This document shows, in pieces, positions 6,512 through 18,991 of a stretch of DNA of 64,000 bases. Under the pieces are notes generated by a model. It did no database searches. It had not been told where the DNA came from and was given only the letters and a program-made list of their open reading frames with translations. This DNA comes from a virus. Taxonomy: Duplodnaviria > Caudoviricetes. Both the position numbers and the translations under genes were made by a program. How positions within the stretch are numbered: position 1 is the first letter of the stretch; every line of letters begins with the position of its first letter. Location: positions 192,001-256,000 of IMG/VR virus record IMGVR_UViG_3300028887_000067; one strand, written 5' to 3'.

Positions 6512-7205
6512 TGCCGTTTACCTCGGGTGTATTGTCTTCTGCATCAACCGCGTCAAGCCACGTGTCCATCAACTGGGCACTGCAGGCTATCGGTGTATAT
6601 GACTCGGGCACAGCCGCCCACGTGCCGTCCCCTTTCAGGAACTTGCCCCGGTCTCCCGTCGCGGGTGCGGGGACGAGACCCTTGGCGCCGGCCCGTTCCG
6701 CCGTGGCGCCGGTGAACACGGGCAGGTCTTCCATGGACGGCTCCGACCAGGTGCCGTCTCCTCGCAGGAACTTGTCCTGGTCTCCGGCCACCGGCTTTGG
6801 AGGAATGCCGTAGTTTCCGTCCGCGTCCGCCGTCGCGCCCGCCATCTCCCTTATGACTATCAGGTCGGCCGGTTCTCCGGCTACTGTGCCCTCGTGTACT
6901 TCTATCGGGTATTCCCCGTAGATGTTCGGACGGACCAGTTCGGCGTTGACCTTGAGGAAGTACGCCGGCTTGCCGTGGTCGTAACCCGGATGTACCTCTA
7001 TCGTCCCGTCGTCGGACTTGATGACCGTGTCGTGCATCACGACCGTGTTGGTCGACGGGCAGCACGGGCCGGGCATCGCCGGCGGTGGCGGCGGTGGCGG
7101 CGTGAACGGGCGCTCCGGGGCGGGCCTGGCTACGGGTGCCCTCTTTGGCGGGGGAGGCGGGCACGCCCCTCCCTTCTTGGTGCCGATATCTAGCGGATGC
7201 GCCAT
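6504..7205 (-). CDS. Pro-rich tail fibre/collar-associated protein
   Basis: Two copies of 'GATA...G..G..P.P..GD..KFL(R/K)GDGTW', a repeat common in phage fibre proteins; upstream TATAAACTGC motif at 7233-7242. Confidence 0.65.
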   Translation of the reverse strand: MAHPLDIGTKKGGACPPPPPKRAPVARPAPERPFTPPPPPPPAMPGPCCPSTNTVVMHDTVIKSDDGTIEVHPGYDHGKPAYFLKVNAELVRPNIYGEYPIEVHEGTVAGEPADLIVIREMAGATADADGNYGIPPKPVAGDQDKFLRGDGTWSEPSMEDLPVFTGATAERAGAKGLVPAPATGDRGKFLKGDGTWAAVPESYTPIACSAQLMDTWLDAVDAEDNTPEVNGNG

Positions 7206-12415: not shown

Positions 12416-12724
12416 ATGTTAGCCGGAATACTGTATTGCGCGACGGCGGTGGCGACCGCGTACCGGATATATCGCAAGATGAAGAAGCGCATTCTCGATT
12501 CCGCCAGATATCCGACGGGCCCCTTGTCGAGCCGGTATAGCGTGAAACGCGATGATTCGATGAAGCACCTATGCCGTCTCTCGGTACACGACCTGATGAC
12601 GGAACTGACGAAGGAGATTGATGCGGAGATACTCAACGCAATGAAGCTTTTGGCACAGTCTAACCTGGAAACTCTTGACGGAAAGGCTCCCAAGAGCTAT
12701 ATTAAAGCCGGAAAACATCCATGA
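12416..12724 (+). CDS. Hypothetical protein with N-terminal hydrophobic segment
   Basis: Fills the gap between helicase and IF3 in operon orientation. Confidence 0.5.
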   Translation: MLAGILYCATAVATAYRIYRKMKKRILDSARYPTGPLSSRYSVKRDDSMKHLCRLSVHDLMTELTKEIDAEILNAMKLLAQSNLETLDGKAPKSYIKAGKHP

Positions 12725-12734
12725 AGGAGACTTA

Positions 12735-13457
12735 ATGGCATTTATCAAGGCTAATTTCGTCCTGATGCAGGACGAGGGTGGCAAGGACCTGGGCAAGATG
12801 CCCACCGGACAGGCCAAGGAATATGCACGCAAGAGGGGAATGGAACTGTTCCCCGTGGACGAGAAGGTTGACCCGCCCGTCTACACCGTCAGGCCACGGC
12901 AGAAGTTCGTGCCTCGTCAGGCGGACGACGGCCGTTCCCAGTACGTAGTGACCGCAGACAAGGTCCGTTGCTCCGACGAGAACGGAGTGTCGCTCGGCGT
13001 CATATCCACGGAGGAAGCCAAGCACATTGCGTCCGAGCGCGGCCTGGACCTCATAGCCGTCAACAATCACATGGACCCGCCTATCGGCCGGATCGGCGAC
13101 CTCAACAAGTACATCTACGACCAGAAGAAGGCGCAGAAGGAGAGGGAGAAGAAGAGCAGGGCGGCGGCGAGGGGTTGCGAAAAGAAGGACTTGAAGATGA
13201 CCTCCGACACAACGAACGCGTCAAAGGCCGACCGTGCCCGCATACTGAACCAGGCGAACGATTTCCTGAAGGACGGCCACCCGGTGGACATCAACATCCG
13301 TTTCCGTGGTCGCGAGAACGCCCATTCCGATACCGCTATGGCGAAACTCCGCGAGGAAATCGCCGAAGGCATCACCGAGGGCACAGTCGGGCAGGAGACC
13401 AGCAACTCGACCGGTGACACGTTCACCATCAGCTGCGTCCCCAGGAAGAAGCACTAG
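12735..13457 (+). CDS. infC: Translation initiation factor IF3 homologue with tandem duplicated N-terminal domain
   Basis: AAGGAGA RBS and ATG at 12735; two IF3-N units (DEGGKDLG..P...AKEYARKRGMELFPV....DPP and DENGVSLGVIS...AKHIASERGLDLIAV....DPP); Lys-rich linker; IF3-C 'FLKDGHPVDINIRFRGRE'. Confidence 0.88.
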   Translation: MAFIKANFVLMQDEGGKDLGKMPTGQAKEYARKRGMELFPVDEKVDPPVYTVRPRQKFVPRQADDGRSQYVVTADKVRCSDENGVSLGVISTEEAKHIASERGLDLIAVNNHMDPPIGRIGDLNKYIYDQKKAQKEREKKSRAAARGCEKKDLKMTSDTTNASKADRARILNQANDFLKDGHPVDINIRFRGRENAHSDTAMAKLREEIAEGITEGTVGQETSNSTGDTFTISCVPRKKH

Positions 13458-13475: not shown

Positions 13476-13545
13476 GCGGGGGGTCGGCCTTCTGGCCGGC
13501 CCCCTTTTCTGTTTAACGTAGAAAGCCGGCCCGAAGGCCGGCTTA
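13476..13545. terminator. Two GC-rich hairpins between convergent genes
   Basis: GGGGTCGGCC-TTCT-GGCCGGCCCC followed by TTTT, and AAGCCGGCC-CGAA-GGCCGGCTT. Confidence 0.75.
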
Positions 13546-16590: not shown

Positions 16591-16812
16591 ATGTGGACTT
16601 TAATTCTCGTATTGGCTATTCATGGTTCGGTATTTACCGAACCGCAAACTATGATGACCAATATTCCCGGCTTCTCATCCAAGGAAAACTGCCTAGCGGC
16701 TGGCGAATCCCTTGCCAAGGAGAATCAAAAGCGCGGTTCTTGGATATATCACTGTATCGAAGTCAACTACGCACACCCTTTAGGGTGTGAGCTTGTAGTT
16801 GCAACCGTTTGA
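16591..16812 (+). CDS. Small secreted/membrane protein whose 3' end is interrupted by the TnpB element
   Basis: AGGAGG RBS; MWTLILVL signal-like start; 'F.SKENC..AG' motif. Joining 16761 to 18248 restores the ending ...CIEVK*. Confidence 0.6.
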   Translation: MWTLILVLAIHGSVFTEPQTMMTNIPGFSSKENCLAAGESLAKENQKRGSWIYHCIEVNYAHPLGCELVVATV

Positions 16813-18247
16813 ACTAGTTGCAACCACGATTGGCCGGTTGACATCGGCCTGCCCGAGAATACCATAGAGCCATAAGTTGGCTTGACTACGATTGAGTCGG
16901 GGCGGTGACGGAGGACGATATTGCAAGCGCCATTACTATCGGCATCAAGCAATTCTCCGTCTGAGGCATAATAACGAGTACCCAGCCGTTTGCCTTCAAG
17001 CAATCCTCGGTAGTCGAGACGGGATGTATAAGCTGGTTCAACTGTTACCACTTCCTTCCCGAGAAGCGGTGCCTTGTACTCTAGTGTGGTCTGGATTTCT
17101 TTCAGAGGAACCTGTCCAAACCGGTTATTATGCTTCTTTCGTTTGATTTCCGTGTGCTTCCCATCTATCTTGATGGTCTTCTTGGAAGTACACTTCTTAA
17201 TCTTGCTTAAATCTTCTAGTACATAGGTAGTATAGTCCTTTGCAAGAAGCCAGTTCACTACCCTATGGACTTCGTTCTTCGAACGATTTTGTTCAGTCCT
17301 TGACAATTTCTTCAAATGACGCTTAGCAGACTTGGTATTCTTTGACTTTAAACAACGGCGTAGATAGCGGAGCTTTCTTCTTTCTCGGTTAAAATCACGG
17401 TTAATCCACCCGGTCCCATCGGAACAGGTCACAATACGGCGAATCCCTCGGTCTACGCCGAGAGCTTCGCCTTCGGTGTGCTCAAGTTCCGGAACATCAA
17501 ACTGGATGGTTAAGTAAAACTGACCTTTTCGATAGAAAATATTGCAGTTCTGCGGCTTGTATAGCTCAAATAATTTGCTCAGTTGCTTGTATGAATCGAA
17601 GGTACAGCGGACTCGCTTGAAACCGGGTACAGTCAAATCGACGGCATTATGTGTTAAATTGTTGTACAATCGCTTGTCGAGAACCATAGAAAGGTTCTTC
17701 TTGATAGGCGGCTCGAAATTGTTTTTTTCGTTTGCTATGCAAGTAGTCCAGTTGCCTACGGCTTCCAATATAGCCTTCAGGACCATCTGGCTGCTTAATA
17801 GCGGAAATTGCTCCCTCAGTTCCTTGTAGTATTCCGATTGTACATCGTATCGACTTAATCTATGGTGCTTAAAGTCTATTCTACTGAATATCTGGCTAAG
17901 ATAGTTATAGCAATCCTTCTCAGCTTCGAGAATTTCCTTGTATCTTGTTTCAGTTTCCGTATTAGGAAATTTGAGAACTGCATTATAACTAATCACCATA
18001 AAGCAAGCAATGCCCGGTAGACACTTATTTTGGCCTTCAGTATCTACCGAGCATCTAAAATCCTATCAAGTACCAGAAGAAGGCCAATAATTCCGATACA
18101 TTAAAAGTTTATACAATTTACAAAAATATTTCATTCAATTCCAATATATTTTGCTATATTTTCATTGGAGGCGGCCATTCCTATGCCACCCTAAAGGGTT
18201 CCCGACCGCTATTCGCGGTCGGTGGCATCTTCCTGGCCGATTATTTT
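16762..18247 (-). mobile_element. Non-autonomous IS200/IS605-family (IS1341-like, tnpB-only) element
   Basis: Right end with CACACCC-TAAA-GGGTGTG hairpin ending ...GTAGTTGAC on the minus strand; left-end hairpin with CACCCTAAAGGGT at ~18187; lower GC; no tnpA; boundaries restore the flanking ORF. Confidence 0.75.
16767..17999 (-). CDS. tnpB: TnpB RNA-guided endonuclease
   Basis: RuvC-I GVDRG, RuvC-II VLEDL, PAYTS, RuvC-III DADSNGACNI; zinc-finger cysteines absent. Confidence 0.9.
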   Translation of the reverse strand: MVISYNAVLKFPNTETETRYKEILEAEKDCYNYLSQIFSRIDFKHHRLSRYDVQSEYYKELREQFPLLSSQMVLKAILEAVGNWTTCIANEKNNFEPPIKKNLSMVLDKRLYNNLTHNAVDLTVPGFKRVRCTFDSYKQLSKLFELYKPQNCNIFYRKGQFYLTIQFDVPELEHTEGEALGVDRGIRRIVTCSDGTGWINRDFNRERRKLRYLRRCLKSKNTKSAKRHLKKLSRTEQNRSKNEVHRVVNWLLAKDYTTYVLEDLSKIKKCTSKKTIKIDGKHTEIKRKKHNNRFGQVPLKEIQTTLEYKAPLLGKEVVTVEPAYTSRLDYRGLLEGKRLGTRYYASDGELLDADSNGACNIVLRHRPDSIVVKPTYGSMVFSGRPMSTGQSWLQLVQTVATTSSHPKGCA

Positions 18248-18292: not shown

Positions 18293-18991
18293 ATGAGTAT
18301 TCAAATTTTATCAATTACGAACAATCCGCTCCAGTTCATCGGTCGTTGCGCCGGAATCTGCTGGGACGCTCCCGTCGACGATCCCGATAAAAACATCAAG
18401 CGGGCCAAAGAGTGCATCGAAAGCAACCACGGTCGCGTGCTTGAATTTCCCGACATGACCATTGTCATCGATGGCCCGTCGGCAAGGATGATGCGCGAAC
18501 TTTACACCCACATCGGCGGCGGTCCGACCCGTCTGCAGTCGTCCACCCGCTATGTCAACGAGAAGGATTTCAAGTATTACACTCCGCCTTCTTGCCAGAA
18601 GGACGGCGTCAAGGAAATCTACGAAGAAGCTATGCAGCACGACGCCGAAGTGTATGGAAAGCTTATCGAGTTGGGCGTACCCCGCGAAGATGCGGCTAAC
18701 AAGCTTCCCCTTGGAATGGAGTCCAAGATGGTGTGGAAGATCAATCTACGCGCCCTGGTGAACTTCTTCAACAGGCGCCTGTGTACCCGCGCACTGAAAG
18801 AAATCCGCGAATTTGCCACGGCGCTCAAGAATACCATTGCCCAGGTCGACGAGGAATGGGCCTGGATTACCGAGAACCTGTTCGTGCCGTCGTGCGAGCA
18901 GTACAAGTATATGAATCCCGCCCTGTGCTTCTGTGTCGAGAAGAAGGGATGCGGTCGTCACCCATACATCAAGGAATGGAAAGCCAAATGA
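18293..18991 (+). CDS. thyX: FAD-dependent thymidylate synthase
   Basis: H.RVLEF, 'RELYTH...QSSTRY', 'GVPREDA...LP', 'NLRALVNFF..RLC.RA..EIR'. Confidence 0.9.
   Translation: MSIQILSITNNPLQFIGRCAGICWDAPVDDPDKNIKRAKECIESNHGRVLEFPDMTIVIDGPSARMMRELYTHIGGGPTRLQSSTRYVNEKDFKYYTPPSCQKDGVKEIYEEAMQHDAEVYGKLIELGVPREDAANKLPLGMESKMVWKINLRALVNFFNRRLCTRALKEIREFATALKNTIAQVDEEWAWITENLFVPSCEQYKYMNPALCFCVEKKGCGRHPYIKEWKAK

Follow-up and report, generated by a model that had tools for sequence, protein, structure and literature searches.

Gene, domains and expression signals

The window (the whole 64,000-nt stretch of phage DNA that was analysed) contains an infC gene encoding an IF3 in which the N-domain occurs twice. 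The gene and its associated features are as follows.

12675..12703, +, host sigma70-type promoter TTGACG-17-TATATT (consensus, 10/12 matches)
12724..12729, +, Shine-Dalgarno (SD) sequence AAGGAG, 5 nt before the ATG; the purine-rich SD is conserved in relatives
12735..13457, +, phage infC, 240 aa, N1-N2-linker-C (ORF; Pfam; TIGR00168)
12744..12905, +, N1, aa 4-57, a truncated, apparently repurposed IF3_N (Pfam, AlphaFold2, alignment, dN/dS)
12906..12947, +, flexible N1-N2 spacer (pLDDT <50 at residues 58-65)
12948..13103, +, N2, aa 72-123, a canonical-type IF3_N (Pfam, alignment)
13101..13175, +, basic linker helix, aa 123-147 (AlphaFold2, alignment)
13185..13448, +, IF3_C, remodelled, aa 151-238 (Pfam, alignment, fold match)
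13478..13505, +, intrinsic-terminator-like hairpin with a 12-pair stem and a T run (consensus match only, shuffle mean 1.1)

The gene product matches TIGR00168 with 116 bits (cut-off 60), the match being divided into two stretches. The Pfam scan suggested in the first-pass annotation returned three domains at or above cut-off: IF3_N at residues 4-57, scanned alone (N1; 32.5 bits, E 1e-7, cut-off 26.9), IF3_N at residues 72-135 (N2; 66.4 bits, same cut-off), and IF3_C at residues 151-229 with a marginal score of 34.9 bits (cut-off 34.8). The C-domain is matched to the fold of 1tig with Z 12.6 and rmsd 1.8 over 86 aligned residues. A gap-free alignment of N1 with N2 shows 33% identity over 60 aa and scores 96, as compared to 45 for the best of 5000 shuffles. 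The N-N-linker-C architecture that had been read from the sequence is thereby borne out, and the D..G..LG, A...A...G..L..V and DPP patterns are indeed present in both N-domains.

In the AlphaFold2 model (48 sequences), N1 (E8-12, E18-23, H24-33, E36-42, E49-54) and N2 (E76-80, E86-91, H92-101, E105-110, E117-121) share the order strand-strand-helix-strand-strand with an offset of 68 residues and a pLDDT of approximately 80. A disordered spacer lies between them, and N2 is followed by the linker helix and the C-domain. Since residues 66-239 alone superpose on the whole of T. thermophilus IF3 (5lmn; Z 13.6, rmsd 3.5, 164 aligned), N1 is the added part. The earlier expectation that the first ~55 aa fold as IF3_N is supported by the predicted element order and the Pfam match, but N1 is truncated: it covers positions 5-58 of the 70 in Pfam IF3_N and lacks the C-terminal helix. 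The relative packing of N1 and N2 was predicted with pTM 0.34 and a mean pLDDT of 69, and the spacer, measured from the end of N1 strand 4, varies from 7 to 29 residues across the phage family, a tether that fits N1 as a flexible appendage. When BFVD and the ESM Atlas were searched by fold with the N1-N2 model, ordinary IF3s were the sole matches. A separate ESM Atlas query with residues 1-62 pointed to stand-alone IF3_N proteins of 42-62 aa in partly viral clusters (score 0.80, a lead only).

Transcription of infC is predicted to start near position 12710, leaving a leader of ~25 nt. Taken singly, the promoter match is close to chance expectation (shuffle mean 0.6); most relatives in subclade 1 have a TATATT-type box at the corresponding position, several of them with TTGAC upstream, and TATATTT is the top upstream 7-mer in one Fibrobacter genome (G052) and the second in another (G007). 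The SD sequence is complementary to the CCTCCTTT found at what appears to be the 3' end of Fibrobacter 16S rRNA. Considering promoter and terminator-like hairpin together, infC looks like a self-contained transcription unit.

An upstream TTG at 12675 is in frame with infC. Due to its overlap with the -35 box and to in-frame stops located 0-2 codons ahead of the ATG in many relatives, the ATG is taken as the infC start. It is preceded by a purine-rich SD-like run in all 28 distinct family genes for which DNA was available, so that the SD plus ATG start noted in the first-pass annotation holds both here and throughout these genes. A start of this type implies that phage infC is free of AUU-type autoregulation; the non-canonical start codon that marks E. 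coli-type AUU-autoregulated infC is absent from these 28 genes. The contrast that had been drawn with bacterial infC stands as far as the phage ATG is concerned, but is softer for the probable host, in which a conserved TTG is found at SD distance (L131, L137-L140, L142, L146, L147, L151) and infC probably starts at UUG rather than AUU. An artefact or a mis-started ORF is ruled out by the Pfam matches, the shuffles, 110 homologs, the conserved SD and ATG, and the in-frame upstream stops.

Distribution, history and residue conservation of the family

Subclade 1 comprises 47 full-length relatives with 45-96% identity; a second subclade of ~60 proteins of ~229 aa is ~37% identical to the first. 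Both occur near PhoH and PIF1-type helicase genes, the longest contigs reaching 300-470 kb, and an RNA ligase gene is situated two genes upstream of the IF3 gene in the second subclade. A viral scan with a second-subclade query gave no match. In the proposed search for the N-N-C architecture, a general N-domain profile revealed two IF3_N domains in 110/110 family proteins, and at least one bacterial case came to light beyond the family; all 43 other viral IF3 loci and the compared bacterial loci have a single N-domain.

In the domain tree, the N1 sequences fall into one clade (SH-aLRT 97) and the N2 sequences into another (85), each mirroring the subclades of the other, a pattern consistent with one duplication before the family split; the sisterhood of N1 and N2 is weak (52; 51 columns). 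An origin of N1 by one such duplication fits these data. A recent duplication is ruled out by the 50% DNA identity of N1 and N2 in register and by the separate clades. The N2-C core forms a separate long branch (SH-aLRT 100) that is not nested in Fibrobacter, and a recent capture from Fibrobacter infC is unsupported on account of these separate long branches. An N-N-C IF3 of the host itself was not found: in the genus sample, the other 52 of 53 matching genomes have one match, which does not span N1. The two full-length matches to bacterial assemblies lie on short contigs of rumen MAGs; these contigs look like mis-binned phage DNA, and each MAG also holds a normal infC. Phage-family contigs are binned into species-representative Fibrobacter and Prevotella MAGs (L050, L051, L277; G001, G002, G074). 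At L004:9196-16582, the genes directly behind the IF3 gene are no longer of phage but of bacterial type (undecaprenyl synthase, RadA-like, dnaN), reflecting either a chimeric assembly or an integration site.

The N-domain of E. coli IF3 meets the initiator tRNA elbow via R25 (invariant), Q33 and R66 (PMC9723500). The platform contact runs through the linker and Y75, and IF3-N resides at the platform near uS11 first and at the tRNA elbow later (PMC5037330). Residue equivalents were derived from the alignment to E. coli IF3 (offsets 53 and 68). In N1 of the phage protein, L10, T51 and P60 occupy the positions of R25, R66 and Y75. Across the family, position 10 is A, M, S, Q, T or L, never arginine, position 51 is T, A or S, and position 18, equivalent to Q33, is D or S. 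The platform helix with Y70 and Y75 is missing, with P60 in subclade 1 and the segment deleted in subclade 2. The presumed action of N1 on initiator tRNA in the manner of IF3-N is therefore not upheld, as the R25 and R66 equivalents are missing and Asp or Ser stands in place of Q33; judged by these residues, N1 is not a second working IF3 N-domain.

N1 is under purifying selection like the other parts of the protein, with pooled dN/dS values of 0.18 for N1, 0.24 for N2, 0.22 for the linker and 0.20 for the C-domain (116 pairs, not independent). Due to this selection, the conserved SD-like run and ATG, and the promoter box in most subclade-1 genes, N1 is very likely translated. Fixed in at least 90% of 110 sequences are I4, D13, G20, M22, G25, A27, A31, L38, P47, P48 and Y50. 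G25 and Y50 depart from the residues usual at these IF3_N positions, which suggests that N1 carries a new binding surface. The mean net charge of N1 is +1 to +1.5, i.e., slightly basic.

N2 retains R78, S86 and R119 at the positions of R25, Q33 and R66, with Met at the R66 position in subclade 2. Family-wide changes occur at the equivalents of N16, E55 and Y70, which are near-invariant in Fibrobacter, other bacteria and other phages. In the linker, Y128 (equivalent to Y75) is invariant in 110 sequences, as are K125, K131 and K132. The C-domain contains a 3-residue insert (aa 162-164; 13218-13226) before a D166-R167-x-R169 motif, of which D166 and R169 are invariant and R167 is near-invariant in the phage family. 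The K110 position is taken by I170 here and by I, L or M in 100% of the family, compared to K or R in 93-100% of other IF3 groups. The K123 equivalent is P family-wide and the Y107 equivalent is R; the R99 position is T156 here and T or P in the family, but bacteria, too, vary at this position (His in Fibrobacter). The C-domain retains K151, K154, G192, R193 and H197. E. coli IF3 with the K110L substitution does not bind 30S (PMC7145577), and Arg91 of Thermus IF3, the R99 equivalent, touches the start codon. Considering these residues, 30S binding of the phage IF3 is probably retained in altered form, and R167 and R169 may compensate for the loss of K110.

Phage, probable host and mRNA classes

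The source record (308 kb, 81% complete) contains a T4-type major capsid gene (Gp23), and the source family is one of T4-like jumbo (giant) rumen phages. An IF1 gene is located at G000:C1:154265-154456 (-) (L278) and recurs in a 93%-complete relative (G203; L283); genes for S1, S21, HPF and RF1 were not found in the 81%-complete record. At 16767-17999 (-) of the window, a 410-aa ORF of low GC3 (0.49) lies between a lytic transglycosylase-like gene and thyX and reads, by eye only, like an IS200/IS605 TnpB-like gene.

The host is probably Fibrobacter. Phage-family contigs occur in two Fibrobacter MAGs and one Prevotella MAG, relatives carry Fib_succ_major genes, and for the phage amidase gene DNA matches of ~69-77% turned up in many Fibrobacter genomes and, of 101 Prevotella genomes, only in the MAG that contains phage contigs. 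Furthermore, the TATATT box of the phage promoters is a top upstream motif in Fibrobacter, and SD use by the phage is 69% versus 7% in a control window; Bacteroidetes generally lack SD sequences (PMC3155529). As no CRISPR-spacer-like match was seen (40 kb against 101 Fibrobacter genomes), Fibrobacter remains a host that we infer.

Three upstream motif classes were distinguished in the phage, assigned by motif position: a late-type TATAAACT box, a CCGGGGCTCC-type motif, and the host-type TATATT box. The late-type box is mostly located 31-41 nt before the ATG, giving leaders of ~25 nt, and is combined with weak SDs: 40% of late-type genes have at least 4 SD-matching bases versus 89-97% in the two early-type classes. 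A T4-late-promoter-like (T/G)ATAAACT motif precedes many genes genome-wide by 31-41 nt (in the window at 7205(-), 10933(-), 27907, 45371 and 48357(-)), and the SDs of these genes are weak. The CCGGGGCTCC-type class at 282-306 kb of the genome has strong SDs; its genes are leadered, with at least 4 matching bases in 97%. There, at G000:C1 ~282000-306200 (+), ~30 small genes each stand behind CCGGGG(C/T)TCC ... CT(A/G)TAC ... AAGGAG, likely an early-gene or host-takeover array.

In approximately 11-12 phage genes a TATATT box occurs 12-13 nt before an ATG or GTG without SD. This arrangement supports the leaderless phage genes postulated in the first-pass annotation, which are likely real. Starts of this type are found in the window at 18293, 23175, 27833(-), 34356, 43120, 49399, 54735(-), 57270(-) and 59954, and the genes include thyX, Nudix, NADAR and NadM/Nudix. 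As counted with a simple gene caller and 600 kb of host DNA, leaderless-type genes account for 11 of 280 phage genes (3.9%) versus 31 of 341 Fibrobacter genes (~9%; p=0.015), and per host-type promoter for 9 of 31 versus 11 of 54 (p=0.43). The Fibrobacter loci (L151-L160, L166-L185) appear to combine a (C/T)TATATTT -10 box with ~9% leaderless-type genes; a literature search for a Fibrobacter -10 box or leaderless genes found none. SD use, ATG use and start/stop overlap did not differ between phage and probable host in these small samples, and ~10% of phage genes overlap an upstream stop. Judged by these counts, the phage follows the habit of its host and is not enriched in leaderless genes.

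Proposed role, alternatives and comparison with known systems

The N-N-C IF3 probably affects the delivery of the host ribosome to phage mRNAs, though not to leaderless ones in particular. The explanation we favour, tentatively and with a rough probability of 0.45, is that of an early, non-autoregulated IF3 that acts on 30S via N2, linker and C-domain, uses N1 as a contact module, and serves initiation on leadered, often weak-SD phage mRNAs. The phage would make its own IF3 early, from a host-type promoter with SD and ATG, free of start-codon feedback. N2, the linker helix and the C-domain would sit on the host 30S as in other IF3s (platform, h23/h24, P site), and N1, copied once in the family ancestor and flexibly tethered, would add a contact near the platform or the mRNA exit, candidate partners being a 30S protein, rRNA, the 5' leader, or a phage factor such as IF1. 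The grip of N1 may offset a C-domain without K110, which probably gates the P site more weakly or loosely. Overall, competition with host IF3 would be expected, along with 30S subunits kept recycled and available and an IF3 permissive for leadered mRNAs, especially weak-SD late ones.

This explanation is in agreement with an N-domain pair present throughout the family, with an N1 that is as constrained as N2 and the C-domain and that lost the R25, R66 and Y75 equivalents while fixing M22, G25 and Y50, and with the retention of R25 and Y75 equivalents in N2 and linker and of K151, K154, G192 and R193 in the C-domain. Family-wide loss of a lysine whose replacement in E. coli abolishes 30S binding, the path of IF3-N from uS11 to the tRNA elbow, the leaders and weak SDs of the late-type genes, and the IF1 genes of the phage and its relative point in the same direction, IF1 being the anchor of the IF3 C-domain. 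On the other hand, R167 and R169 may replace K110, in which case the C-domain need not be weaker; the host-like SD and ATG use and overlaps leave no obvious phage-wide mRNA feature to select; the charge of N1 is weak for an RNA-binding module; and the host is a probable one, with promoter classes that rest on motif position. The more specific idea of N1 as a specificity module that N2 tethers at the 30S platform, reading phage leaders or a phage protein (e.g., IF1) and thereby assembling initiation complexes selective for the phage on host ribosomes, together with a C-domain that relaxes the P-site check, is regarded as unlikely; if true, N1 would turn an initiation factor of bacterial type into one that chooses its mRNAs by means of an extra domain.

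Alternatively, the protein might act as a plain supplement to host IF3 that raises its dose (subunit splitting, recycling, waking of idle ribosomes), with N1 stabilising it or adding non-specific affinity. Many jumbo phages carry an ordinary N-C IF3, which has been suggested to act in ribosome rescue or support (PMC7824862), the E. coli C-domain alone sustains growth (PMC9723500), and the initiation signals of the phage resemble those of the host. However, the N1 surface positions are fixed across subclades that are ~37% identical, which suggests a specific partner, and N2 and the C-domain changed family-wide at the near-invariant N16, E55, Y70, K110 and K123 equivalents. We consider a plain supplement rather doubtful.

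Improbable is the retuning towards leaderless transcripts that the first-pass annotation had proposed, by which an altered IF3 would relax anti-association or discrimination in favour of leaderless phage mRNAs. Leaderless-type genes such as thyX, NADAR and NadM/Nudix exist, and the loss of the K110 and R99 equivalents could weaken the gate. Excess of normal IF3 inhibits leaderless initiation, re-initiation and even growth of M13 (PMC2268962), so that a phage overproducing IF3 may need a more tolerant one that protects such genes. But leaderless genes are rarer in the phage than in Fibrobacter and do not differ significantly per promoter, the late-type and CCGGGG-class genes are leadered, and an mRNA without 5' leader would offer nothing for an extra domain to read. 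Retuning accounts better for the C-domain changes than for N1, and its weak form, a tolerant IF3, may concern the C-domain more than N1.

Quite improbable is a role in counter-defence, in which a host protein able to bind or modify IF3-N would be met by N1 as a decoy or shield, or in which the phage IF3 would stand in for a host IF3 inactivated during infection. N1 keeps the fold without the ribosomal contact residues, small stand-alone viral IF3_N proteins appear to exist (the 0.80 lead mentioned above), and the second subclade has the upstream RNA ligase gene. Yet we know of no defence that targets IF3-N, the steady purifying selection on N1 is not arms-race change, and a decoy should mimic the host surface from which N1 departs. 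Very improbable is host shut-off, in which tight 30S binding by two N-domains would hinder host mRNAs, including the leaderless ones in which the host is richer and which IF3 excess inhibits along with re-initiation (PMC2268962), while phage early mRNAs with strong SDs such as the CCGGGG class escape; the strong-looking, unregulated expression signals of infC would suit it, but the phage would harm its own weak-SD late genes and stop-overlapping genes, and the loss of K110 points to weaker rather than tighter C-domain binding.

The N-N-C IF3 family represents a natural experiment, combining a conserved second N-domain without the known contact residues with the loss of K110. It also suggests that the largest phages of a probable main cellulose degrader of the rumen exert control over translation. 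What the N-domain of IF3 does is a matter of ongoing work (PMC9723500), and the role of phage-encoded IF3s is described as untested (PMC11895373).

By profile and fold the phage protein belongs to the IF3 family, from which it departs in K110 and in the single-N dumb-bell. Its residues 66-239 resemble bacterial IF3 (infC; TIGR00168; PF05198 + PF00707; PDB 5lmn, 8jsg) in sequence and fold, with R25, Y75, the basic linker and the G-R loop in common. In contrast to bacterial IF3, it has an extra truncated N-domain, an SD plus ATG start, an N2 changed at the N16, E55 and Y70 equivalents, and a C-domain with K110 to I/L, R99 to T/P, Y107 to R and a 3-residue insert. The IF3s of GAP32-like phages and of further jumbo or huge phages (phrog_9787) are comparable in that a T4-like jumbo phage carries IF3 together with IF1, and phage IF3 has been proposed to redirect or support host translation (PMC7162821, PMC7824862, PMC11895373). 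Unlike the protein described here, 43/43 other viral loci are single-N, mostly with K/R110, and no entry among 47 GenBank phage records reached 80% coverage of the double-N query. A further parallel is phage bS21 with an N-terminal extension (PMC7162821), likewise a phage version of an initiation component that is lengthened at its N-terminus and has been proposed to give phage mRNAs preference; there the addition is a basic/aromatic tail, whereas here it is a folded duplicate of the protein's own domain.

The first-pass annotation knew of no described double-N IF3, in agreement with our literature search, which found none and covered subscription papers in part. Phage IF3s are already known; the conserved N-N-C variant is apparently undescribed. 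In mitochondrial and chloroplast IF3 and in Myxococcus Dsg, terminal extensions on the IF3 core tune activity; to our knowledge these are not second IF3_N folds.

Beyond the phage family, at least one N-N-C case was present among the best 150 matches from 1.84 billion representatives searched. This bacterial infC paralog (P0069, P0208) has two IF3_N domains, each of which exceeds the Pfam cut-off in P0069, followed by a linker and a C-domain, and is chromosomal, directly behind a normal infC near rpsF-ssb-rpsR (L150:6033-6782, L161:8001-8786, L162:1793-2578). Due to its grouping with its own neighbour IF3 (SH-aLRT 86), an independent origin is likely. Unlike phage N1, the first domain of P0069 has Arg at or beside the R25 position. 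If N1 is a specificity module, such an independent paralog would make selection through an added domain a recurring design.
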